A DNA stretch of 34,310 nucleotides, from IMG/VR virus record IMGVR_UViG_3300033892_000029; one strand, 5' to 3'. Both the position numbers and the translations under genes were made by a program. This document shows, piece by piece, positions 1-34,310 of this stretch (positions are counted from its first letter, which is position 1; each line of letters begins with the position of its first letter). Source of the DNA: a virus. The notes under the pieces are model-generated. The model ran no database searches. It had not been told where the DNA came from and saw only the letters and a program-made list of their open reading frames with translations.

Positions 1-127
1 TCGACATTTTCCGCTCGGATGACTTCGCGAGGGTCAAGATGCTCACGATCTTCAATCCAGTGCGCCGGCACGCGCACGCCATGCCAGTGGTAAAGCGACC
101 AACCGTCGCGCCAGCGATGCGAGGGTC
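1..127. repeat. Terminal direct repeat, left copy (identical to 34184-34310); most likely the overlap left by circular assembly
   Basis: Read directly: bases 1-127 (tcgacattttccgctcgg...ccagcgatgcgagggtc) recur exactly as the last 127 bases. A minus-strand reading frame runs straight through the repeat. Confidence 0.95.
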
Positions 128-1316
128 CCGCTTCACTGTGAGGGCGGTTTTGCTCGTCCACTTTCAGGATCTCTGGGAAATCGCACACCATGCAGAATTC
201 CTCGTGCGTCCACCGGAATCCTCCGTGGATGGCAGCCTGCTCCCAGGACGCATAAGCCTCATGAGGCGGCAAGCGCAGCCCGAGAATGTCTCTGGCCGCC
301 GAAAGATAGCAATCCCAAGCGGCCCACATGTTGCCGCCTTGGCAGGGGTTCGCCCAGCGCGAAATGCACTGGCACATGAGAGGGGCGAGTTCAGGGCCGC
401 CAAGTTCAACGGCTAAAGGATAGACCCAAGCATAGGCGACCGTGGCGTCGTACGTGGCGGCGCGCGTGGCGGCGCGCGTGGCGGCGCGCGTGGCGGCGCG
501 CGTGGCGGCGATCGTGGCGGCGATCGTGGCGGCGTTCGTGGCGGCGATCGTGGCGTCGCGCGTGGCGGCGCGCGTGGCGGCGCGCGTGGCGGCGATCGTG
601 GCGGCGATCGTGGCGGCGATCGTGGCGGCGTTCGTGGCGGCGATCGTGGCGGCGTCCGTGGCGGCGTTCGTGGCGGCGTCCGTGGCGTCGCGCGTGGCGG
701 CGATCGTGGCGTCGCGCGTGGCGGCGATCGTGGCGTCGCGCGTGGCGTCGCGCGTGGCGGCGATCGTGGCGGCGATCGTGGCGGCGTTCGTGTCGGCGAT
801 CGTGGCGGCGATCGTGGCGGCGATCGTGGCGGCGCGCGTGGCGGCGTCCGTGGCGGCGTCCGTGGCGTCGTACGTGGCGTCGCGCGTGGCGGCGTACGTG
901 GCGTCGTCCGTGGCGGCGTCCGTGGCGGCGTCCGTGGCGGCGGCCGTGGCGGCGGCCGTGGCGGCGGCCGTGGCGGCGGCCGTGGCGGCGTCCGTGGCGG
1001 CGGCCGTGGCGGCGTCCGTGGCGGCGCGCGAAGGGGGCGCCTGTGGGTGCTTGCGCGCATGCCAAATGGCTGCGGCAAAGCCGCCGGCTATCGCCATGAC
1101 CAAGGGACTGGGTACGATAACGACACGCGGTTCTTTCAGTTTGGCCGCGCGATACATGCCGTGGATCGCGGACGTGATCTTGTCCGGTTCGATGGGATCG
1201 GTGCGGAAGGCACGCGCCGTCCATTGTTTGACGTGCTCGGCCATCGCGGCGCGCTCGGCCTCCGTCAGGCCACCGCCGGCGAAATCGGGACGACGGATGA
1301 TCTTTTCCTGCTTCAT
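1..1316 (-). CDS. N-terminal 1316 nt of a gene that wraps across the window ends: DUF6745-like protein with an internal 49-unit X-A-A-T repeat. It continues at 34183 and stops at 33883 (538 aa on the circle).
   Basis: Absent from the ORF track because the frame runs off the left edge. Hand translation, in the frame of ORF 33883..34260, finds ATG at 1316 with AAGGGGAG at 1325-1332. The product reads MKQEKIIRRPDFAGGGLTEAERAAMAEHVKQWTARAFRTDPIEPDKITSAIHGMYRAAKLKEPRVVIVPSPLVMAIAGGFAAAIWHARKHPQAPPS-(XAAT)x49-VAYAWVYPLAVELGGPELAPLMCQCISRWANPCQGGNMWAAWDCYLSAARDILGL... There is no stop between 1316 and 1. The DUF6745 assignment is from memory of that family's pattern and is unverified. Confidence 0.8.
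   Translation of the reverse strand, partial: MKQEKIIRRPDFAGGGLTEAERAAMAEHVKQWTARAFRTDPIEPDKITSAIHGMYRAAKLKEPRVVIVPSPLVMAIAGGFAAAIWHARKHPQAPPSRAATDAATAAATDAATAAATAAATAAATAAATDAATDAATDDATYAATRDATYDATDAATDAATRAATIAATIAATIADTNAATIAATIAATRDATRDATIAATRDATIAATRDATDAATNAATDAATIAATNAATIAATIAATIAATRAATRAATRDATIAATNAATIAATIAATRAATRAATRAATRAATYDATVAYAWVYPLAVELGGPELAPLMCQCISRWANPCQGGNMWAAWDCYLSAARDILGLRLPPHEAYASWEQAAIHGGFRWTHEEFCMVCDFPEILKVDEQNRPHSEAGPSHRWRDGWSLYHWHGVRVPAHWIEDREHLDPREVIRAENV
442..1029. repeat. Perfect-period 12-bp tandem array, 49 units, plus-strand consensus GTGGCG(G/T)CGNNC
   Basis: Counted from the sequence and from the VAxx periodicity of plus ORF 442..1344. Variation is confined to unit position 7 (G/T) and positions 10-11 (CG, AT, TT, TC, TA, GC), with one unit reading GTGTCGGCGATC. 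All three minus frames and one plus frame stay open across the array. Confidence 0.97.
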
Positions 1317-1629: not shown

Positions 1630-1895
1630 GACAATGGATGATACCTTGATACATCGGGATAGTCAAGGGTGGAACGTTCATGACGCAAGCCGTACACCCA
1701 AGGCGCGCGGCCCTTGCCACGACGCACGTACGCCACGATCTGCACCACGTGTTGCGCCAGCAGCGTCCGCAGGGCTTTTTCGATGGCGCTCTCGCTGACG
1801 CCCACGCAAAGCGCCAAATCTCTTTTTGTCATTGGCTGCAGGCGCAGGACTTGCAGCAGGCGATGGCGCGCCGGTACGGGTGAGCGCGGGTTCAT
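1626..1895 (-). CDS. Putative winged-helix DNA-binding protein (89 aa)
   Basis: Internal ATG at 1895 within ORF 1626..1976, forming an ATGA overlap with the upstream small ORF. MNPRSPVPARHRLLQVLRLQPMTKRDLALCVGVSESAIEKALRTLLAQHVVQIVAYVRRGKGRAPWVY has a MarR/ArsR-like HTH-plus-wing pattern. The function is an inference. Confidence 0.6.
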   Translation of the reverse strand: MNPRSPVPARHRLLQVLRLQPMTKRDLALCVGVSESAIEKALRTLLAQHVVQIVAYVRRGKGRAPWVYGLRHERSTLDYPDVSRYHPLS

Positions 1896-2581: not shown

Positions 2582-2830
2582 TCACGCCTCCCGCAACGGC
2601 TTGAACTCGGCGACCGCGGCCCAGTAGGCGTTGGGCATCTCGCCGCTACACACGACGGTGTAGCCGTGCTGGCGCAACCACACTTCCCCGATATCGAACG
2701 GGTTGGCGTAGTCGTAGTCATACGGGAGGATTACCGCATCCCGCTCGAAACGTTGCGACGTGAGCTTGACGCGCGCGCCGCGCGACATGGTTGGGCCAAG
2801 GAAAGCGATCTTGATCAGGTGAGCGTTCAT
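2582..2830 (-). CDS. Hypothetical protein (82 aa), first CDS of the leftward operon
   Basis: ATG at 2830 inside ORF 2582..2959, preceded by AAGGGG. MNAHLIKIAFLGPTMSRGARVKLTSQRFERDAVILPYDYDYANPFDIGEVWLRQHGYTVVCSGEMPNAYWAAVAEFKPLREA. The upstream part of the listed ORF is the tRNA-like element read as protein. Confidence 0.7.
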   Translation of the reverse strand: MNAHLIKIAFLGPTMSRGARVKLTSQRFERDAVILPYDYDYANPFDIGEVWLRQHGYTVVCSGEMPNAYWAAVAEFKPLREA

Positions 2831-2852
2831 GGGGTGCCCCTTGTGAGATGGA

Positions 2853-2923
2853 TGGCGCCGGGAGCGGGAGTCGAACCCGCTGTCAGAACCTATGTTCAGG
2901 TAGGACCGCCCTACTTCCCCGAC
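2853..2923 (-). tRNA. tRNA-like element (71 nt with encoded CCA) with a truncated anticodon arm; not an ordinary tRNA by my folding
   Basis: The minus strand reads GTCGGGG-AA-GTAG-GGCGGTC-CTAC-CTGAACATAGGTTCTGACA-GCGGG-TTCGACT-CCCGC-TCCCGGC-G-CCA. It has a 7-bp acceptor stem (two G-U pairs), a 4-bp D stem, a canonical T arm with TTCGAnT loop, a discriminator base and CCA. Only 19 nt lie between the D and T arms where about 22-23 are needed. The only pairing there is GAAC/GTTC around a 4-nt loop, so there is no 7-nt anticodon loop. Confidence 0.5.
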
Positions 2924-2931
2924 GTGTTGCC

Positions 2932-2959
2932 AATCTATCACGTCTGACACGTATGTCAA
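2932..2959 (-). promoter_or_regulatory. Sigma-70-type promoter for the leftward operon
   Basis: The minus strand reads TTGACA (2959-2954), a 16-nt spacer, then TAGATT (2937-2932). The predicted start is about 7 nt downstream, 1-2 nt before the 5' end of the tRNA-like element at 2923. Confidence 0.5.
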
Positions 2960-3075
2960 GCATTATTTCCCTTCCATCCGTGGCCTTTCCCCTTGTTTCG
3001 TCCATCGATTCAGCATTCGTTCACCCGATTGCCGCCAAGCGCTTCCTCTATTGCTCCATCCATGGCTTGAGCTAA

Positions 3076-3095
3076 GGATGAATCCTTTCTATGCA
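3076..3095. repeat. 20-bp direct repeat, copy A (GGATGAATCCTTTCTATGCA)
   Basis: 17/20 identical to 3301-3320. Each copy has a CCATGG close to its left side. Confidence 0.7.
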
Positions 3096-3300
3096 TGGAC
3101 CATCAATGACTTAGCAAGGTTACCGTGTGTGTGTAGCAGCAGTAGGGTAGTGAGTTCTAACACTGTAACTCCTGATCCATCTTCTTCCATATCATAGTTA
3201 AATCATCACTCGCATAAGCTGTAACATTTGACTAATCCATAGATATAGCTTAAGAAGCGACAGCGGCTGTAGCATGAGTTCAAGCACAGGATGTAGCCAT

Positions 3301-3320
3301 GGATGGATCTTTTCTGTGCA
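3301..3320. repeat. 20-bp direct repeat, copy B (GGATGGATCTTTTCTGTGCA)
   Basis: 17/20 identical to 3076-3095, 225 bp away. The two copies bracket the AT-rich island. Confidence 0.7.
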
Positions 3321-3592
3321 GGAGGACAGCTCAGGCGGGAAGAGGCTGGAACGCGCTGTGAGCGTCTGTGCGGCGTTTCCAGCGTGGGGTCGGTAGGGTG
3401 GTAGCGGCCCCCTCCCTGGCTGGCGCTCTGGATCGATCCTGATCGGTTCCAGCCCCCTCCGATCCCTCCCTTCCGACTCCCGACCCGGCGCTTTGGGCTT
3501 TTCGCTCGATCAACAGAGAGGCTCCACCCTCCCCCACCCCAGGAAAAAATTCGGTGGAGAGGGCTTAATCACCCTCCCCCTTTCTGGCACCC

Positions 3593-3632
3593 CCGTAGCT
3601 AACGAAGCTCCCCATAGGCGTCTTAGCTACGG
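3593..3632. promoter_or_regulatory. Inverted-repeat pair 1: CCGTAGCTAA-20 nt-TTAGCTACGG (candidate operator, pac-type site or RNA hairpin)
   Basis: Perfect 10-bp arms at 3593-3602 and 3623-3632 with an exact 20-nt spacer. The right arm extends as TTAGCTACGGACCCC. Confidence 0.6.
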
Positions 3633-3666
3633 ACCCCATGGGCGGGAACAGTGGGTCAAAAACCCT

Positions 3667-3706
3667 CCGTAGCCAACGGATACAAAAATGGACGGCTTAG
3701 CTACGG
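3667..3706. promoter_or_regulatory. Inverted-repeat pair 2: CCGTAGCCAA-20 nt-TTAGCTACGG
   Basis: Arms at 3667-3676 and 3697-3706 (one mismatch), again with an exact 20-nt spacer and the same TTAGCTACGGACCCC extension. Offset from pair 1 is 74 bp. Confidence 0.6.
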
Positions 3707-3813
3707 ACCCCTGGGATGGATCGGTGACCCGGAAATCCCACCCCTTATCGGGCCATGGCTGACGCAGTAAGCTTGACCTGCAGCCGGCCTGTTGCTGGCG
3801 CGGGAGAAGAAAC

Positions 3814-4289: not shown

Positions 4290-4615
4290 AAACCGCCGCC
4301 GGTATCCGCGCCTATATCCGCCGTTCCCGGGTGCCGATCGCCGACTGGGCGCGGGCGCTGGGCGTGCACTACACCTCGCTCTACCGCATGGTCTGCGGGG
4401 TGAGCGGGATGCAGGAGGGGCCCTTGATGCGGCGCGCCATGTGGATGGTGCAGGCGCTGGAGGAAGGGCAGGCCCGCTGGGAGCGCAGCACGCTGCCCGA
4501 CGGCCATGGCGCATGGCGCATCCAGGGCCTGGCCTTCACGCCGACCACGATGGTCACCTACCGGGCCAATTTCCTCGGCGGTACGTTCCAGCGCATCGAG
4601 GGCGTCGAAACGTGA
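4286..4615 (+). CDS. HTH-containing small protein (109 aa); small-terminase/DNA-recognition candidate by position
   Basis: ATG at 4286 (ATGA overlap) in the frame of ORF 3992..4615. MKTAAGIRAYIRRSRVPIADWARALGVHYTSLYRMVCGVSG has a helix-turn-helix pattern. It lies immediately upstream of, and is translationally coupled to, the large terminase (GTGA at 4612-4615). The role is inferred from synteny only. Confidence 0.55.
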   Translation: MKTAAGIRAYIRRSRVPIADWARALGVHYTSLYRMVCGVSGMQEGPLMRRAMWMVQALEEGQARWERSTLPDGHGAWRIQGLAFTPTTMVTYRANFLGGTFQRIEGVET

Positions 4616-6417
4616 AGTTCCCTCGCCAGCAGTTCGAGACGTTCTGCAGCCGCCTGGTGCTGAACTCCAAGGAGCAGGGCCGGGTGCCGTTCCGGTGGAA
4701 CGGGGCACAGGTGCGTTTCGTGGATGAAATGGAAAAGGGCTTAGGCCGCGAGCAGCACAAGATCGTCGTGTGCAAGGCCCGCCAGCTGGGCATCACCACG
4801 ATGACGCTGGCGCTGGACCTGTTCTGGCTGTTCCGCCATCCAGGTACGCAGGGGGCGCTGGCGGTCAGCAACGAGTCGGTCCGCGACCTGTCGCGCAACA
4901 TCCTGACCAACTACCTGGACGGGTTGCCCAACGGCATGAAGGTGCCGGTGAAGATCGACAACCGCACCGAGATCCGTTTCACCAACACCTCGCGTCTGGC
5001 CCACATGATCGCCGGCGGCCGCAACTCCGGCGCGCTGGCTCGCGGCCAGGGTCTCAACTACGCCCACATGACCGAGATGAGCAGTTGGGCGGACCCGGAG
5101 GGGGTGGTGTCGCTGGATGCCTCGCTCGCCGAAACGCACCCCAACCGCCTCTACATTGCCGAGTCCACCGCGCGCGGGTTCAACGTCTTCCACGACATGT
5201 GGGAGGACGCCGAGCGCTCGCTCTCGACCAACGCGATCTTCATCGGCTGGTGGGCGAAGGAGGACTATCGCATGCCGCGCACCTCGCGGCTGTGGGATAC
5301 CTATGGACGCGCCCGGCCCAGCCGCGACGAGCAGGCGTGGGCACGCGAGGTGAAGAAGCGCTACGGCCACGAGATCACCCCCGAGCAGTTCGCCTGGTGG
5401 CGCTGGAAGTGGGCCGAATCGGGCGAGAGCCGCCTCCTGGTCGCCGAGTATCCCTGGACCGCCGACCAGGCCTTCGTCATGACCGGCGACCAGTTCTTCG
5501 GCGCGCAGACGCTCAAGAAAATCAAGGAAGCCGCGTTGCAGGTGCCGCGGCAGTGCTGGCGCTACGTGATCGGCCCGCGCTTCGAGGACACGGCGTTGGA
5601 GCCCGATGAGGACGGTCCGCTGTCGATCTTCGAGGAGCCGCGTTCGGACGCCGAGTACGTGATCGCCGCCGATCCGGCCTACGGGGAGAGCGAGTGGGCC
5701 GATCACTTCTGCGCCCAGGTGCTGCGCTGCGAGCGCGACCGCGTGGTGCAGGTGGCGGAGTTCAACTCTCCCGATTGCACCATGTACGGCTTTGCCTGGA
5801 TTCTTGCCCACCTGGCCGGCGCCTATTCCTCGATCGCCAAGCCGGCCACCCTGATCATCGAGCTGGGCGGCCCGGGGCGGGGCGTGCTGCAGGAGCTGCA
5901 GCGCATGCCCGAGCAGTACGCCGACCGCATCGACTCGCTCAGCCCCAGCGCGCAGCGGGCGCTTCAGAACCTGTTCGGTTCGATCCGCCACTACCTGTAC
6001 CGTCGCCCCGACAGCCTCTCCGGCGGCCGGCTGCTGCAATGGGAGACGACCTGGAAGACCAAGCAGATCATGATGAACCTGTTGCGCGACGGCATCGAGC
6101 GCGGCATGGTCACGGTCAACAGCCCCGAATGGCCCGAGGAGGCGCGCTACGTCACCCAGAACGGCAGCCGCATCCAAGCCGAAGGCCAGCACAAGGACGA
6201 CCGCGTGGTGGCGATGGCGCTGGGCGTGGTGGCCTGGCAGCAGCAGGTGCTGCCCGAACTCCTGGCCGCCCATGCCGAAGCCGGCTACGGCCGCGGGCCG
6301 GCCGCGCCGCTGGATCGCGCGGTGCACAACTGGCTGGACGGCATCCGCTCGGGCGCCGAGGATGCGCTCTGGTCCACGCCTTCCTACGGCTACGCATCCT
6401 GGGACGAGTTGCAGTAG
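4612..6417 (+). CDS. terL: Terminase large subunit (601 aa)
   Basis: GTG at 4612 in the frame of ORF 4441..6417. Walker-A-like VVCKARQLGITT, then LAHMIAGG...GQGLNYAHMTEMSSW, ESTARG, and a C-terminal nuclease-type HKDDRVVAMALGVVAW. The gene sits upstream of the portal. Confidence 0.88.
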   Translation: MKFPRQQFETFCSRLVLNSKEQGRVPFRWNGAQVRFVDEMEKGLGREQHKIVVCKARQLGITTMTLALDLFWLFRHPGTQGALAVSNESVRDLSRNILTNYLDGLPNGMKVPVKIDNRTEIRFTNTSRLAHMIAGGRNSGALARGQGLNYAHMTEMSSWADPEGVVSLDASLAETHPNRLYIAESTARGFNVFHDMWEDAERSLSTNAIFIGWWAKEDYRMPRTSRLWDTYGRARPSRDEQAWAREVKKRYGHEITPEQFAWWRWKWAESGESRLLVAEYPWTADQAFVMTGDQFFGAQTLKKIKEAALQVPRQCWRYVIGPRFEDTALEPDEDGPLSIFEEPRSDAEYVIAADPAYGESEWADHFCAQVLRCERDRVVQVAEFNSPDCTMYGFAWILAHLAGAYSSIAKPATLIIELGGPGRGVLQELQRMPEQYADRIDSLSPSAQRALQNLFGSIRHYLYRRPDSLSGGRLLQWETTWKTKQIMMNLLRDGIERGMVTVNSPEWPEEARYVTQNGSRIQAEGQHKDDRVVAMALGVVAWQQQVLPELLAAHAEAGYGRGPAAPLDRAVHNWLDGIRSGAEDALWSTPSYGYASWDELQ

Positions 6418-7391: not shown

Positions 7392-9065
7392 ATGCGCATC
7401 CCGAAGGCGCCGGCGGAACGGATCGACTGGCTGTACAGCACGCTCGCCCGCCTGCGTCGCTCGATGGACGACCGGCGCGCCAAGGCGCGCACGTGGCGCA
7501 GCTGGTACCTGCATGGCGCCCCGGAGTGGGGCGCGCGCTACAACATGATCTGCCCGCAGGTGAACACCCTGGCCGGCTACCTGTACGCGCCGCGCAGCGT
7601 GCGTTTCAGCCTCAACGCCGGGCCGGTGGCCAAGGCCGGCAAGATCGCCCTGTTCGAGACCGCCGCGGTGCGCCTGCGCACGCTGTGGAACGAGTCCTGC
7701 GCGGATGAGGCCTACAGCAACCAGACGCTCTGGAGCCTGGTCTATGGCTCGAGCTTCCTGAAGTTCCGCTGGGCCGAGGGCAAGCCGCGCTGCCTGCCGG
7801 TGGCGGCCTTTGACCTGGGCGTGTGGCGCGACGACCTGCCGGACCTGGAAGATCAACAGGCGATCCTGCACACCTATCGGCTGGATGGGGAGACCGTGCG
7901 CCTGTGGCTGGTCTCCGCCGGCATGCCCGGACCGGAGGTGGACGCGTGGATGCGCCGCTTGGGCAACGGCAACAGCGGCGAAAGCCCCAGCCGCGGCGCG
8001 GTTGCAGTGGGCCAGATGAACCCGATCGGGTGGTCCGGCGGCGTCTCGCAGGGCGTGGCCGGCGCGGTGACCGACTGGGGCAGCGTCAGTGCCGACTACG
8101 GCGGTGATTCGCCGACGCTGGAGATCGAGGAGATGTGGGTGCGCGACGATGCGACCCGCGACTGGCGCATCTTCCAGATCATCGAGAAGGACCTGATCCT
8201 GTCCGATCGGCCGAACGATTTCCTGCCCGAGCACCATCCGTTCGTCAAACTCACCCCGGACCCGGTGGATGAATGGTTCTGGGGCCGCTCGACGGTGGAG
8301 CAGCTGATTCCGCTGCAGGCCCTGCGCGAGAAGCGCATGAACCAGCTCGACCGCCTGTGCGCGCGCCAGGCCAACCCGCCGATGGTGGCCAGCGGCCTGA
8401 GCGGCGTGACCGACGAGAAGGCGGCGGCCGTGATGCGCCGCGGCGGCCTGCTGGGTTCCTCGCAGGTGCCCGGCGCCAAGATCGACCTGCTCACGCCGCA
8501 GGTCTCGGAAATCAGCTTCGCGCTGATCAACGACATCGACGCGATGTTTTCCAACACGCTTGGCCTCACCGACATGCTGCAGGGCCAATCCTCAGGCAAC
8601 GAGCGTGGCGGCGCGCACGCGCGGGCGATGATGGAAGCGGGCGCCAGCCGCCTGACGCGCCGGATGCAGAACGTGGAGCGCGCAGTGGCGGAAGGCGCCT
8701 CGCTGCTGATGGAGCTGGCCAAGCGCTACGACGACACGGTGCTGGTCGATGATGACGATCAGCGCTACCTCATGGCGCAGGTGCCGGAGGAAGCGATGGT
8801 GGAAGTGGCCGCGCATTCGGCCTCGCCGCTGTTCGCCACCCGCGCGCAGCAGGACGCCGCGCAGCTGATGGAGCTGGGCATCATCGACAAGACCGATTTC
8901 CTGGACCTGGCCGATCCGCCGATGTCCGAGGCGCTCAAGATGCGCATGAAGGCGCGCGACAAGCAGCACCAGAAGCAGGTCCAGCAGGCCATCCAGCAGA
9001 CCCCCGAGAACGACCGCTGGCAGCTGTTTACCAGCCTGCTGGGCCTCGGCAAGAAGCGCGCCTGA
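7392..9065 (+). CDS. Portal protein (557 aa)
   Basis: ORF track. The size, the position after the terminase and ahead of scaffold and capsid, and the acidic/basic helical C-terminus all fit. No search was run. Confidence 0.75.
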   Translation: MRIPKAPAERIDWLYSTLARLRRSMDDRRAKARTWRSWYLHGAPEWGARYNMICPQVNTLAGYLYAPRSVRFSLNAGPVAKAGKIALFETAAVRLRTLWNESCADEAYSNQTLWSLVYGSSFLKFRWAEGKPRCLPVAAFDLGVWRDDLPDLEDQQAILHTYRLDGETVRLWLVSAGMPGPEVDAWMRRLGNGNSGESPSRGAVAVGQMNPIGWSGGVSQGVAGAVTDWGSVSADYGGDSPTLEIEEMWVRDDATRDWRIFQIIEKDLILSDRPNDFLPEHHPFVKLTPDPVDEWFWGRSTVEQLIPLQALREKRMNQLDRLCARQANPPMVASGLSGVTDEKAAAVMRRGGLLGSSQVPGAKIDLLTPQVSEISFALINDIDAMFSNTLGLTDMLQGQSSGNERGGAHARAMMEAGASRLTRRMQNVERAVAEGASLLMELAKRYDDTVLVDDDDQRYLMAQVPEEAMVEVAAHSASPLFATRAQQDAAQLMELGIIDKTDFLDLADPPMSEALKMRMKARDKQHQKQVQQAIQQTPENDRWQLFTSLLGLGKKRA

Positions 9066-11205: not shown

Positions 11206-11221
11206 TTGAAGGAAAGCCGTC

Positions 11222-12217
11222 ATGCCTCAATTCGGAAGCGGTATCGTACCCAGTGGGGCCCTCGGGACCCAGCTCTCTGCCGTCACCCGTCGCGGCATCA
11301 CCGAAGATGCCATCGTCGCCCTCTACCAAGCCTCGCCCACGCTGGCGCTGCTGTTCTCCAAGGCCAACGCCGCCTCCGGCGGTGTGTCGTCGGTGACGGT
11401 GCCGGTGCAGCTCTCGCCGCTAACGGCGGGCAGCTGGACGGACTTCGGCGGCGCCTTCCCCGCGCCGCAGGTCATGTCCGGTCTGGTGCCGGCGGAGTTC
11501 AACCTGAAGGGCCTGGTGGTCCCGGTACCGCTGCTCGGCATGCAGTCGATGCTGCAGGTGGACGAGACGGTGGTCTCGCTGCTGGAAGCGACCATGGACG
11601 ACGCCAGCAACCAGGCGGTCTCCATGCTGACCAACGCGCTCTTCAACAACGCCTCGAACGCGCAGCAGCTCGGCGGCTTCCCGCTGGCGATCAGCAATAC
11701 CGGCACCTACGGCGGCATCAACCGTGCGACCTACACGAACTGGCAGTCGAACGTGATCGCCGAGGGCACCGTGGCGCCCACGCGCAACTCGACCCTGCTG
11801 GACGTCATCAAGACCACCAGCGCGGGCTTCGGCGAGCGGCCGACCTTCGGCGTGACCGGTCCGCTGACCTGGCACAATCTGGCGACCGACTTCACCTCGC
11901 AGGAACGCTACAACGTCAACCCGGGCGGCACCTACGCCGACAGCCAGTTCGGCGCCGCGGCGATGTTCCAAGCGCTGTCGGTCGGCGGCGTGCCGATCTA
12001 CCTGGACGCGAACGCGACCGAGGGCGAGATCTACTACCTCAACGAGAACTACGTGTCGCTGTACATCCACCAGGATGTGAGCTTCGGCTTCACGGGGTTC
12101 GAGTCCACCCTGATCAACAACCAGATCGGTTTCATCGGCGCGCTCTTGAGCCTGCTCGAACTGGTCGTGTCCAAGCCCTCCACCTGCACGGTGGCGACCG
12201 GCTACACCCATTCCTAA
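11222..12217 (+). CDS. Major capsid protein (331 aa)
   Basis: ORF track. The size, the position after the scaffold, and a sequence typical of podovirus HK97-fold capsid proteins (..TGTYGGINRATYTNWQSNV.., C-terminal ..IGFIGALLSLLELVVSKP) all fit. No search was run. Confidence 0.8.
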   Translation: MPQFGSGIVPSGALGTQLSAVTRRGITEDAIVALYQASPTLALLFSKANAASGGVSSVTVPVQLSPLTAGSWTDFGGAFPAPQVMSGLVPAEFNLKGLVVPVPLLGMQSMLQVDETVVSLLEATMDDASNQAVSMLTNALFNNASNAQQLGGFPLAISNTGTYGGINRATYTNWQSNVIAEGTVAPTRNSTLLDVIKTTSAGFGERPTFGVTGPLTWHNLATDFTSQERYNVNPGGTYADSQFGAAAMFQALSVGGVPIYLDANATEGEIYYLNENYVSLYIHQDVSFGFTGFESTLINNQIGFIGALLSLLELVVSKPSTCTVATGYTHS

Positions 12218-16449: not shown

Positions 16450-16629
16450 ATGCCCCTGCATCGTGGCACCTCACCGAAGACCGTTCGTCGCAACATCCGG
16501 GAATTTCGCACCGGCACCACCTACGCGCGCACGAAACGCAAGTACGGCGCGAAGGTCGCCAACCGTCAGGCCATCGCGGCCGCCCTGCATGAGAAGCGCC
16601 GTTCCGGGCGCAAAGGACATCGCACATGA
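16450..16629 (+). CDS. Small basic protein (59 aa)
   Basis: ATG at 16450 in the frame of ORF 16303..16629. MPLHRGTSPKTVRRNIREFRTGTTYARTKRKYGAKVANRQAIAAALHEKRRSGRKGHRT. From memory it resembles the DUF6496-type small proteins; unverified. Confidence 0.5.
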   Translation: MPLHRGTSPKTVRRNIREFRTGTTYARTKRKYGAKVANRQAIAAALHEKRRSGRKGHRT

Positions 16630-18149
16630 GTTACCCCGCAGGCTGGGATCTGGTCACCGTCACCGGGACCTACATTGGCAAGAATGGCGTACCGTGCGCC
16701 GGCTCGGTCACGTTCTCCTCGCCGCAACTGGTGTTGCGCTCGGGCACCGTGGTGCCGGCGGCCGACATCGTGTTCGACCTCAACAGCAGTGGCGCGTTCA
16801 GTGGGCAGGTGCCGGCCACCGATGATCCCAACGCGCAGCCGACCGGCTGGCTCTACACGGTGACTGAGAATGTGCCCGGCGGTCGCCAGGGCCTTCTGAT
16901 CGCCGCGCCGAATGCCTCCCCCGGCATCGACATGTCCACCGTGGTGCCGGTCACCATGCCGGTGCCACCCTCGTATCCCTACCCGCTGGCGACCCTGCAG
17001 CAACTGGCCTCCGAAGTCGCGCCCACCGGTGCCTCGCTGATCGGATTCCTGCAGGTGGGTACCGGCGCGGTCGGGCGCACGCTGCAGAACAAGGTGCAGG
17101 AACGCGTCTGCCTGAACGACTTCGGCGCCACCGGCTTCACTGCCATGACAGCCGCGGTCGATGCCATCCAGGCCATCGGCGGTGGCACCCTGCGCATGCC
17201 CAACGGCACGCAGAACACGCCCGTGCCCGGCAACTACTGGGGCGGCACGCTGCAGCCGGGCAACATCGGCGGCGTGCTGGTCGATTATGACGGCCCCTAT
17301 GTGCCGGTGGCGATGTTCCTGGAGCAGTACGGCACGTCCTACTACTCGGAGAAGGTCTACCGCTTCTACGAGAACCAAGCGCACGCCGGCTACGGGCACA
17401 GCGTGGTGCACATCGAGAACGAGGCCTATGGTACCGGCGCGATCGGTCCGACCAACGCGGACTTCGCGCTGACCATCAACTTGCGCAAGCAGGGCGCGGG
17501 CAGCGGTTCGGCGGTCGCGGGCGAACTCGATGGCGCGTACATCGGTGTGCGTAACGACGGCAGCAATTCCGACACGACCGGCTTCCTGATCGACGTGGGC
17601 CAGTACGGCACCGGCTTCAACGCGGCGTTCGAGGCGAACATCGAATCGTTCGTGTCCGGATCGGTGGCGTTGCAAATGGACGTCCAGTGCGGCGTCATCG
17701 ACACGCGCACCAACAACCAGTACGGGCTGGTGCTGAATGCAGAGAAGGGCACGCTGGGCTATGGCATCCTCCTCCAGTCCGTATCGGGCGCCAACTGGAC
17801 CAACTTCATCGTCGGCTCCTACAACCAGAAGAACGTCTATCAGCTGAGCGCCAGCGGCGAGACCTATATCACCAGCACGGATGGCACGCACAACGTATCC
17901 TTCGGCATTGACCCGTCTTCATACGTGTACTACATCAATGTGGCCTCGAATACCTCCCGCATTGTTTCGCTCGACCAGTCCGGCAATCTCTCGCTGGCCG
18001 GCTGGCTGAATGTGGGCGGCACCGAGATCCTGGGTGCGGTAGCGACCACGGCCACGGCCGGCACCGCCACATTGCCGTCCAATCCGGTCGGCTTCATGAC
18101 CATCAGCAACGGTGGCACGACCTACAAGATCCCCTACTACCACACCTGA
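16626..18149 (+). CDS. Tailspike/tail fiber with a pectate-lyase-like beta-helix (507 aa); depolymerase candidate
   Basis: ORF track. GASLIGFLQVGTGAVGRTLQNKVQERVCLNDFGATG followed by GGGTLRMPNG matches the N-terminal signature of pectate_lyase_3-type phage tailspikes. The rest is Gly/Asn/Thr-rich and periodic. Confidence 0.7.
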   Translation: MSYPAGWDLVTVTGTYIGKNGVPCAGSVTFSSPQLVLRSGTVVPAADIVFDLNSSGAFSGQVPATDDPNAQPTGWLYTVTENVPGGRQGLLIAAPNASPGIDMSTVVPVTMPVPPSYPYPLATLQQLASEVAPTGASLIGFLQVGTGAVGRTLQNKVQERVCLNDFGATGFTAMTAAVDAIQAIGGGTLRMPNGTQNTPVPGNYWGGTLQPGNIGGVLVDYDGPYVPVAMFLEQYGTSYYSEKVYRFYENQAHAGYGHSVVHIENEAYGTGAIGPTNADFALTINLRKQGAGSGSAVAGELDGAYIGVRNDGSNSDTTGFLIDVGQYGTGFNAAFEANIESFVSGSVALQMDVQCGVIDTRTNNQYGLVLNAEKGTLGYGILLQSVSGANWTNFIVGSYNQKNVYQLSASGETYITSTDGTHNVSFGIDPSSYVYYINVASNTSRIVSLDQSGNLSLAGWLNVGGTEILGAVATTATAGTATLPSNPVGFMTISNGGTTYKIPYYHT

Positions 18150-28185: not shown

Positions 28186-28623
28186 TCACGAACTCGGCCA
28201 CTGCCCGCTTTCGATCATCGTGGCCAGCCGCTCGTAACGGGCCGGGAGCTGCTGATAGACCAGCGTGTCGCGCAGGTCCGCGGCGGCCGCCGTCCACTGG
28301 CTGGCGCCCATGTAGTTGAGGAAGCCGGCAAAGAGGCTGAACGCGGTCAGGCCGAGGTTGAAGGCCATGTCGATCAGCGCCGCCTGGCGTACTGGATCGA
28401 GGGTGGCAAACCACGGCCACCGCTGGAGCCCCTGGACCACGGCGTCCTGGTCGTGCTGGAACTGCCGGTCGATCGCCTGATCCAAAAGCGCCTGCACATC
28501 GGCCGCCACCCCGTTGGACAGGCGGTGGCCGATGCCCCAGGTCAGGTTGCCGCGGGTGTCGGTGTAGGGCCAGGTGCGTCGGCCCTCGTCCTGTTCGAGT
28601 AATTCCTGTACTGACGAGATCAT
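28186..28623 (-). CDS. Endolysin, T4-lysozyme-type (GH24) muramidase (145 aa)
   Basis: ATG at 28623 (GGAGGTAATTATG) in the frame of ORF 28186..28800. MISSVQELLEQDEGRRTWPYTDTRGNLTWGIGH matches the GH24 catalytic E-x8-D-x5-T pattern with the GIGH motif. Confidence 0.85.
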   Translation of the reverse strand: MISSVQELLEQDEGRRTWPYTDTRGNLTWGIGHRLSNGVAADVQALLDQAIDRQFQHDQDAVVQGLQRWPWFATLDPVRQAALIDMAFNLGLTAFSLFAGFLNYMGASQWTAAAADLRDTLVYQQLPARYERLATMIESGQWPSS

Positions 28624-28625
28624 AA

Positions 28626-28988
28626 TTACCTCCGGGGAGTAGCCAGGGCGCGCTGAATCCAGTCCAGTGCCAAGCCCTTCTTCACCTGCTCCGGGGTGAC
28701 GGCCATGACGGTGAAGCCCAGCGCGACGGCCTCGGCGGTCTTGGCGCAGTCGCGGGTGATGCCCGTGCCGGAGCTGTGGCCGGACGCGCCCTTCGCCCAC
28801 ACGCCGCCGTTCACTTCCACCAGCAGCCAGCCCAGCTGGAAGTCGAAGCGGTAGCGGCGCTCGGGGATCACCTTGGCCTCGCGCTGGTAAGGCAGGCCGG
28901 CGGCCTTGAGCTGGAAGGCCAAGAGCGCCTCGGGCTTGGACTCGCGCGCGGCGCGGCGCAACTGACGGATCGATTCAATGGTGGTCAT
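28626..28988 (-). CDS. Vsr/DUF559-like PD-(D/E)XK endonuclease (120 aa)
   Basis: ORF track. ...PYQREAKVIPERRYRFDFQLGWLLVEVNGGVWAKGASGHSSGTGITRDCAKTAEAVALGFTVMAVT follows the E..RFDF..VEV.G..H....D..K pattern of that fold. Assigned from memory. Confidence 0.55.
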   Translation of the reverse strand: MTTIESIRQLRRAARESKPEALLAFQLKAAGLPYQREAKVIPERRYRFDFQLGWLLVEVNGGVWAKGASGHSSGTGITRDCAKTAEAVALGFTVMAVTPEQVKKGLALDWIQRALATPRR

Positions 28989-33882: not shown

Positions 33883-34310
33883 TTAGGTACGGCGCGGCGG
33901 ATGGATGTATTCGGCCTGCGGATCGCCGATGCGCCACGCCTGCGCGGCGAGGGCCGTGTCGATGGGAAGGTTGTCGATATCGGAAACGCGCGGCACCCCT
34001 TCCACGATCGTGCCATTGCGCGGGCATTCGGCTTTAAGGAAGCGGCCCGGTTCAGCCAATCCCGGGAGATCCAGCTCGATGAGTTGGCCGATGGTCGGCG
34101 AGCCGCTATCGTGGATCACGCGCGCTTTGAGCACTTGCAACATCTTCGGCCACCCGACAATAGCAGCCCCGGCGGCGCGCTGTTCGACATTTTCCGCTCG
34201 GATGACTTCGCGAGGGTCAAGATGCTCACGATCTTCAATCCAGTGCGCCGGCACGCGCACGCCATGCCAGTGGTAAAGCGACCAACCGTCGCGCCAGCGA
34301 TGCGAGGGTC
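33883..34310 (-). CDS. C-terminal part of the wrap-around DUF6745-like gene (see 1..1316); 34184-34310 duplicates 1-127
   Basis: ORF 33883..34260 is listed with an internal GTG, but the frame stays open to the window end and continues at base 128 on the circle. ...SHRWRDGWSLYHWHGVRVPAHWIEDREHLDPREVIRAENVEQRAAGAAIVGWPKMLQVLKARVIHDSGSPTIGQLIELDLPG... Confidence 0.8.
   Translation of the reverse strand, partial: PSHRWRDGWSLYHWHGVRVPAHWIEDREHLDPREVIRAENVEQRAAGAAIVGWPKMLQVLKARVIHDSGSPTIGQLIELDLPGLAEPGRFLKAECPRNGTIVEGVPRVSDIDNLPIDTALAAQAWRIGDPQAEYIHPPRRT
34184..34310. repeat. Terminal direct repeat, right copy (identical to 1-127)
   Basis: Exact 127-nt identity read by eye. Confidence 0.95.

Follow-up and report, generated by a model that had tools for sequence, protein, structure and literature searches.

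Directly behind the promoter of its leftward operon, the uncultured tailed phage in IMG/VR virus record IMGVR_UViG_3300033892_000029 (34,310 nt; this whole stretch of analysed DNA is referred to as the window) carries a 71-nt element that resembles a transfer RNA (tRNA) with a miniature anticodon arm, and the question raised by this locus is what such a cloverleaf might be doing at the very start of an early transcript. The reading that we tentatively favour, by analogy with known systems, is that the element mimics the top half of a tRNA and may be recognised by the tRNA-maturation enzymes of the host, which would free it as a stable small RNA and thereby define where the early mRNA begins. 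It is favoured because the features preserved in the element are those that tRNA-end enzymes read, and because analogous systems exist. The parts of the element are as follows.

2853–2923, minus strand: whole tRNA-like element, 71 nt (minimum free energy (MFE) cloverleaf, shuffles, custom covariance model)
2917–2923, minus strand: 5′ strand of the acceptor stem, GUCGGGG (7/7 paired with 2857–2863)
2900–2914, minus strand: D arm, GUAG / loop GGCGGUC / CUAC (4-bp stem; sequence and fold)
2886–2897, minus strand: miniature anticodon arm, GAAC / AUAG / GUUC (4 bp, 4-nt loop)
2864–2880, minus strand: T arm, GCGGG-UUCGACU-CCCGC (sequence; local match to the T arm of an Rfam model, see below)
2853–2863, minus strand: 3′ strand of the acceptor stem, UCCCGGC, followed by discriminator G73 and an encoded CCA (sequence)

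These parts are joined by A8-A9 (between acceptor stem and D arm), CU (between D arm and miniature anticodon arm), and UGACA (between miniature anticodon arm and T arm). The acceptor stem consists of five G-C or C-G pairs together with U2·G71 and G7·U66, and the D loop carries a GG that we presume to occupy tRNA positions 18–19. This anatomy, including the non-canonical anticodon arm, as well as the promoter and the spacings dealt with below (with the coding sequence (CDS) starting 22 nt past the CCA), is as the original prediction had described it, judging from sequence, fold, and promoter scan. That prediction had further allotted only 19 nt to the anticodon arm and variable loop, able to form only a 4-bp stem with a 4-nt loop. 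While the count and the loop stand, the interval between D and T arms is only 3–4 nt shorter than in a normal tRNA (19 vs. 22–23 nt), and the hairpin can be extended by a U·U mismatch (2898/2885), giving a stem of 4–5 bp. The interval can be numbered as C26, a five-position anticodon stem (the U27·U43 mismatch plus four pairs), A32-U33-A37-G38, and a 4-nt variable loop, so numbered that only the anticodon bases 34–36 can be read as missing from the loop (which is one reading of the sequence, not proof).

All stem pairs of the element (20/20) are intact, and the positions that are invariant in the elbow and T arm of tRNAs (i.e., G18, G19, G53, U54, U55, C56, G57, A58, and C61) are all kept, whereas the core invariants U8, A14, A21, and Y48 are replaced by A, G, C, and A, respectively. 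The shortened anticodon loop lies outside the elbow and T arm too, being counted with the core. Assuming a canonical ancestor, this imbalance (four of five core positions changed vs. none of nine in the elbow) corresponds to a Fisher p-value of about 0.005. The top half of a tRNA is preserved in the element, and the bottom half is not.

This imbalance bears on the possibility that the element is an inert relic, i.e., a host or phage tRNA gene that was captured in the 5′ untranslated region (5′UTR) of this lineage, disabled by the loss of 3–4 nt from its anticodon loop, and harmless ever since. A length deficit that is readable as exactly the anticodon triplet would suit such a history, but intact stems and invariants next to four altered core positions are unlike uniform decay, and phage genomes are compact. 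Taking in the evidence on tRNA finders and donors given below, we regard an inert relic as the main alternative, possible but rather doubtful.

The sequences that would produce and follow the element are the following.

2954–2959, minus strand: –35 hexamer TTGACA (sequence; promoter scan; invariant in an alignment with relatives L007 and L013)
2932–2940, minus strand: extended –10, TG-n-TAGATT (sequence and promoter scan)
2923–2926, minus strand: predicted transcription start zone, 6–9 nt past the –10 (from the usual spacing between –10 and start)
2831–2852, minus strand: 22-nt spacer UCCAUCUCACAAGGGGCACCCC from CCA to ATG, with a Shine-Dalgarno-like AAGGGG at 2842–2837
2582–2830, minus strand: first CDS of the leftward operon, 82 aa, with its ATG at 2830

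The promoter has its TG at 2940–2939 and its –10 (TAGATT) at 2937–2932, with a spacer of 16 nt between TTGACA and TAGATT. It scored 10/12 plus the TG in a promoter scan, and is the better of only two sigma-70-like sites of at least 10/12 in the 34-kb window. It is common to relatives L007 and L013, where it serves the homologous first gene and where the aligned –10 region GTGATAcATT is kept. Only 8 nt (GGCAACAC) lie between the –10 and the element, and A2925 is the most likely transcription start, which would leave a leader of 0–2 nt ahead of G1. The other site of at least 10/12 (TTGACT-17-TATCAT, window 1631–1666, minus strand) lies within the leftward operon, which it may serve as an internal promoter.

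The start of the first CDS at 2830 is fixed by 11 homologues, all of which begin with ATGAAC or ATGAAT at the same point, indicating that the element is non-coding. Homologues of the 82-aa protein share its N-terminus at 58–76% identity, and no family or PDB match was found for it. No terminator was found between the element and the CDS, so that both are co-transcribed. Two open reading frames (ORFs) that would cover the element were discarded, i.e., an in-frame TTG-extended version of the first CDS (2582–2959), since the homologues start at 2830 and no gene caller proposed it, and an overlapping plus-strand ORF (2848–3075), which no gene caller called either.

A predicted start within 0–2 nt of the paired G1, and a CDS reached without an intervening terminator, are also what would be expected if the element simply stayed on the mRNA as a 5′-terminal stabiliser, blocking decay that depends on the 5′ end (via RppH and RNase E, or via RNase J). 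Stem-loops at the 5′ terminus with very few unpaired 5′ nucleotides stabilise Escherichia coli mRNAs (the ompA paradigm), which counts in favour of this explanation. Any hairpin would do for this purpose, however, leaving the consensus T loop, the GG of the D loop, G73, and the CCA unexplained, and relatives manage with a short unstructured leader. We therefore find a mere stabiliser unlikely.

Fold, chance, and family tests

The MFE structure predicted by RNAfold for the 71 nt is exactly the cloverleaf (–28.9 kcal/mol), but support for the structure comes from tRNA-specific motifs, not from thermodynamics. In 1000 dinucleotide shuffles of the window, a 5-bp stem closing a TTCRANY loop turned up 0.318 times per shuffled window, and 0.013 times when an adjoining 7-bp acceptor stem was included as well. 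With the CCA required in addition to T arm and acceptor stem, none of the 1000 shuffles gave a match vs. one in the real window, by which a chance origin of the fold is rejected.

The original prediction had held that the element does not fold as a standard tRNA, and indeed no tool returned a tRNA with a 7-nt anticodon loop. ARAGORN at default settings called neither a tRNA gene nor a transfer-messenger RNA (tmRNA) in the window, and Rfam gave no match for the element at gathering thresholds. At a lowered threshold, ARAGORN reported a 2-nt "anticodon" for the element. In E-value mode, Rfam yielded a 17-nt T-arm match to positions 347–363 of the tmRNA model (13.8 bits), below which any match to the tRNA clan scored, while the best full-length alignment was to Tymo_tRNA-like (RF00233), at 15.2 bits vs. 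a gathering threshold of 40 (E = 0.5).

Several known kinds of RNA were considered and rejected on these grounds. The element shares with a canonical tRNA gene the 7-bp acceptor stem, the T-arm invariants, G18 and G19, the discriminator, and the CCA, but its loop is 4 nt (AUAG) instead of 7, it carries A8, G14, C21, and A48, and both ARAGORN and the Rfam gathering search were negative. Neither is it a canonical tRNA that merely lacks its triplet, as none of the 64 possible triplets, when re-inserted, yielded an ARAGORN call at default settings. A call was obtained only at a 90% threshold and with a shifted acceptor register, and the failure at default settings indicates that the body of the element is non-canonical too. 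The tRNA-like domain of tmRNA likewise combines an acceptor and T arm with the lack of an anticodon. The element, however, has a true D stem, a C-G pair at 3:70 instead of G3·U70, no tag reading frame, and no pseudoknots; ARAGORN found no tmRNA, and the Rfam match is confined to the T arm. Finally, the tRNA-like structures at the 3′ end of plant virus RNAs (RF00233) are viral mimics that act in cis and end in CCA, but they have an acceptor pseudoknot, retain an arm resembling that of the anticodon, and form the 3′ terminus of RNA genomes, whereas the element belongs to a DNA phage, lies at an mRNA 5′ end, and scored far below the family threshold.

The element thus fits no catalogued family, and the most apt description is that of a variant of the known tRNA-like processing or mimicry modules. 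In the literature, coverage of which was incomplete, no report was found of a phage early operon that opens with a tRNA-like element lacking an anticodon. The negative ARAGORN, Rfam gathering, and triplet re-insertion results are also what an inert relic would give, and in that case the element would serve as a warning that standard finders miss tRNA-like fragments in phage leaders.

Distribution and origin

The upstream region of the first gene was compared among relatives, i.e., the loci for eight homologues of this gene (L005–L014 and L037–L041). In L013 and L014, the promoter is followed by a short leader (35 nt from –10 to ATG; 5′UTR of roughly 28 nt) and then the gene, whereas in L007, L005, L006, L009–L012, and L038–L040 one or two small ORFs fill the slot before the first gene. 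The slot between the early promoter and the first gene is an accessory-gene hot spot, and, as far as sequence comparison goes, the element is a lineage-specific acquisition in this variable slot, just downstream of a conserved early promoter. That it is an orphan of a single lineage, with a short 5′UTR or small ORFs in its place elsewhere, speaks for an inert relic as well.

The ORFs in the slot are 43–64 aa long (L005, 2776–2964; L006, 2643–2968; L009, 430–701; L038, 2120–2308), and several of them share the N-terminal motif M-T-R-Q-x-L/I-...-Y-P-F-H.

Occupation of this first-expressed slot, which in relatives varies between zero and two unrelated small ORFs, is what accessory or counter-defence genes often show. 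It is conceivable, then, that the element acts in trans, being released as an uncharged anticodon-less RNA that serves as a sponge or decoy for host factors reading the acceptor end or the elbow, such as toxins that modify the CCA end. Toxins of host defence that act on the CCA end of tRNAs or check their acceptor stem include toxSAS/FaRel2 (PMC11559606), CapRel (PMC9712102), and MenT (PMC10435456), and a role in countering defences directed at tRNAs has been suggested for phage tRNAs (PMC10264068). The support for such a mimic is purely contextual, however, with neither a partner nor conservation to back it, and we hold it to be quite unlikely. If true, the variable "first gene" slot would here hold a counter-defence made of RNA only. 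A decoy for anticodon nucleases, which the original prediction had offered as one possible role, is a weak proposal, because the anticodon loop that those enzymes read is missing here.

The search for a donor covered genomes, metagenomes, and viruses, and no donor tRNA for the element was found in any of these scans, so that a very recent passive capture is not evident. Identity to the 3′ half of a host tRNA, a possibility raised in the original prediction, was not found, since none of the bacterial tRNAs in 185,579 species genomes carries the 3′ half of the element (although the host may be unsampled). This argues against an inert relic too. A 23-nt pattern of the T arm and acceptor strand matched mostly archaeal genomes (tRNA-Ser where checked) and a few unrelated bacterial fragments. 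Among viral contigs, patterns given as an exact 28-mer, with specified loops, with specified stems, or as the 5′ half returned nothing or chance matches, and the loop-specified pattern found the same phage plus one chance match among metagenome contigs. Such scans pick up exact matches to a pattern only, so that diverged copies would easily escape them. In a blastn search against 50,697 phage records, only 28–39 nt of the 3′ half were matched, mostly by the T-arm and acceptor ends of tRNAs, and the 5′ 30 nt of the element had no match, which again sits poorly with an inert relic.

The last 28 nt of the element are 89–93% like tRNA-gene 3′ ends and attP-type sequences in Pseudomonas phages, as would be expected if it were an attachment-site or recombination scar, i.e., a piece of a host tRNA gene left behind by integration and excision. 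Such a scar is essentially excluded, in view of the following observations. Scans of the ORFs of the phage turned up no integrase or recombinase, the element includes a 5′ acceptor strand and a D arm that attachment-site cores need not have, the scanned genomes hold no bacterial tRNA with this 3′ half, and many samples yielded the phage genome as a free circle on assembly.

Some odd phage tRNAs do carry the acceptor and T-arm 3′ end seen in the element, which is a point in favour of an inert relic. One of them is an unusual 80-nt phage tRNA at 3089–3168 of locus L044 (IMGVR_UViG_2895767234_000001), called tRNA-Gly(ccc) by ARAGORN, the MFE structure of which (z = –4.3) shows an anticodon stem of 9 bp closing a loop of 5 nt. 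Its 3′ end agrees with that of the element only as a consequence of the pattern used in the search, which selected for this agreement.

A further tRNA-like arrangement was seen around 200–340 of locus L024 (JAWKVY010000005.1, a Hyphomicrobiaceae metagenome-assembled genome), where the 3′ half of a tRNA, with GCCA at its end, precedes the matching 5′ half (GCCGGGA plus D arm) at a distance of 2 nt. In the MFE fold, it is enclosed by a long stem and looks like a circularly permuted tRNA-like gene, which ARAGORN did not call at default settings.

Candidate processing by host tRNA-maturation enzymes

The tentatively favoured reading, i.e., that the element is a tRNA top-half mimic, can be spelled out as follows. 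The mimic would consist of the stacked acceptor stem and T arm, the elbow formed by D loop and T loop, and the 3′ GCCA end, with a decoding half that has been disabled either by design or because this is tolerated. Transcribed from the strongest host-type promoter that the phage has, it would make up the initial 71 nt of the early leftward transcript, and the tRNA-maturation machinery of the host would treat it as a pre-tRNA. RNase P would remove the leader of 0–2 nt, an endonuclease (RNase E in proteobacteria) would cut just past the CCA, and exonucleases would trim the product, thereby parting the element from the mRNA. The outcome would be a nuclease-resistant RNA of 71–74 nt, one per early transcript, and an early mRNA with its 5′ end about 20 nt ahead of the start codon. 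Of the three roles put forward in the original prediction, such a processing signal is the most defensible, even if its basis lies in known enzyme specificities and not in data from the phage.

The features read by bacterial RNase P and other tRNA-end enzymes are all present in canonical form in the element, i.e., 12 stacked bp of acceptor and T stem, the UUCGACU loop, G53-C61, U54/A58, the GG of the D loop, and G73-CCA. For such recognition, a role of the distance from acceptor end to elbow has been described (PMC4919913), as has a dependence on RCCA (PMC12710915). In E. coli, pre-tRNAs are cut by RNase E 1–3 nt past the encoded CCA and by RNase P at the 5′ end, followed by exonuclease trimming (PMC2190699). 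Moreover, RNase P has non-tRNA substrates in phages, i.e., M3 RNA and the C4 antisense RNA (PMC11143913).

A number of observations weigh against this reading. The fold is no more stable than that of shuffled sequences (z = –1.12), and when 65 nt of downstream mRNA are added the predicted MFE structure is no longer the cloverleaf. The non-canonical 8-14-21 and 15-48 positions may block a proper L-shape. A leader of just 0–2 nt would leave RNase P little to bind or remove, and the RNase E step is assumed. No tRNA-related enzyme was matched among the early or scanned phage proteins. The element was also not found in relatives that keep the promoter and the first gene (by motif scan, ARAGORN, and covariance model), nor in the two nearest database phages (MW202753 and MW202825, uncultured genomes from Manatee Spring with a large terminase identity of 40–43%), and its lack in the relatives speaks against a core function. 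Finally, it is identical in every recovered copy of this near-clonal phage (contigs being 99.76–100% identical overall), and everything past the anatomy rests on this single invariant instance. In line with this, the 90% cluster of the 82-aa protein holds only an identical full-length member and a 68-aa fragment. Exact-pattern scans of viruses, metagenomes, and genomes, and a custom covariance model built from the element (one match in the window, 106.5 bits), revealed no homologue beyond identical copies of the phage. The original prediction had taken the G-U pairs of the acceptor stem as a sign of selection, which is not supported, as all copies are identical and chance alone would make two transitions compatible with wobble pairing in roughly a quarter of cases.

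Cloverleaves that do not decode are familiar from eukaryotes, where mascRNA (from MALAT1) and the tRNA-like RNAs of gammaherpesvirus 68 have a reduced or abnormal anticodon arm, are excised from longer transcripts by tRNA enzymes, and end in CCA. In these RNAs, the 3′ end is cut by RNase Z and the CCA is added post-transcriptionally, unlike the encoded CCA of the phage element, and the Rfam search in E-value mode gave no match of the element to the mascRNA family.

A comparable case is that of the plant-mitochondrial t-elements, which are non-canonical cloverleaves carrying the motif GGTTCRANYCC within mRNA precursors, where they are proposed, and in the case of cox1 shown, to guide the tRNA-processing enzymes that define mRNA ends (PMC1920247). 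The same motif is matched by GGTTCGACTCC (2878–2868, minus strand) within the predicted mRNA precursor of the phage. Like the element, t-elements keep the T-loop motif and adjoin coding regions, and they can accumulate as stable small RNAs (PMC1920247). They are organellar, however, depend on RNase Z and a protein-only or organellar RNase P, and are dispersed copies of mitochondrial tRNAs, whereas the phage element is a single copy at the predicted +1 of a promoter and has an encoded CCA.

An artificial counterpart is the E. coli tRNA scaffold, in which the anticodon arm is swapped for another hairpin without loss of recognition by factors of the cell, and which is stable in vivo and shields the cargo that it carries (PMC3753655). 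The scaffold retains acceptor, T, and D arms as does the element, with a hairpin replacing the anticodon stem-loop, but the scaffold bears its cargo at the anticodon position, whereas the element has a minimal 12-nt hairpin there and is fused 5′ to an mRNA. Among phages, M3 RNA and the C4 RNA of P1/P7 (PMC11143913), and RNAC and RNAD of T4 (PMC3014915), are RNAs other than tRNAs that either pass through the tRNA pathway for maturation or are transcribed along with it, as proposed here. They bear no sequence relationship to the element and are not complete cloverleaves at an early mRNA 5′ end, and no function has so far been assigned to RNAC and RNAD of T4 (PMC3014915).

If functional, the element would be a bacterial-virus counterpart of the mitochondrial t-elements and of the eukaryotic and herpesviral tRNA-like RNAs. 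A tRNA top half would have been put to new use as a module for processing, stability, or mimicry, and the phage would transcribe it before anything else. It would then provide a compact natural test (71 nt, a known promoter, and a single downstream gene) of the minimal tRNA that suffices for bacterial maturation in vivo, and might point to RNA-based interference with tRNA-directed host functions.

Genome and neighbouring regions

Both ends of the window (1–127 and 34184–34310) are the same 127 nt, reflecting an assembly overlap, so that the genome is a circle of about 34,183 bp on which the leftward operon runs on from position 1 to the right end. The same genes are found on contigs of 34.1–34.3 kb in several ENA and JGI samples, and these recurring contigs together with the terminal overlap indicate that the window is a complete circular genome of roughly 34.2 kb, with a G+C content of about 66%. 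The following genes were recognised.

4441–6417: large terminase
7392–9065: SU10-type portal
11210–12217: major head protein
16593–18149: tail fibre
28186–28800, minus strand: endolysin
Minus strand: spanin-like protein, endonuclease VII, and exonuclease

A large early gene carrying DUF6745 lies on the minus strand, starts near 1316, and spans the window ends. Within it sits a 12-nt tandem repeat, CGTGGCGGCGTT (window 441–1026; 48.8 copies with 89% matches), which on the coding strand specifies a 4-residue unit about 49 times over. The protein is 538 aa long in some contigs vs. 478 aa in another, consistent with variation in the copy number of the repeat.

The leftward and rightward operons are separated by a gene-free divergent region of about 980 nt (2831–3813), which is kept in blocks with L007 and L013 (mean column identity of 67%) and may represent an operator or an origin. 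CCATCC/GGATGG motifs recur in it, among them a perfect inverted repeat of 13 nt (3055–3067 / 3295–3307), and one copy of the motif (2848–2858) extends into the CCA end of the element. When compared with L007 and L013, the region also holds a second lineage-specific insertion of about 200 nt (about 3560–3760), with two hairpin units at a spacing of 74 nt (CCGTAGCTAA/TTAGCTACGG; 3590–3637 and 3664–3711), one of which is followed by a T-run on the minus strand and looks like a terminator (3680–3666).

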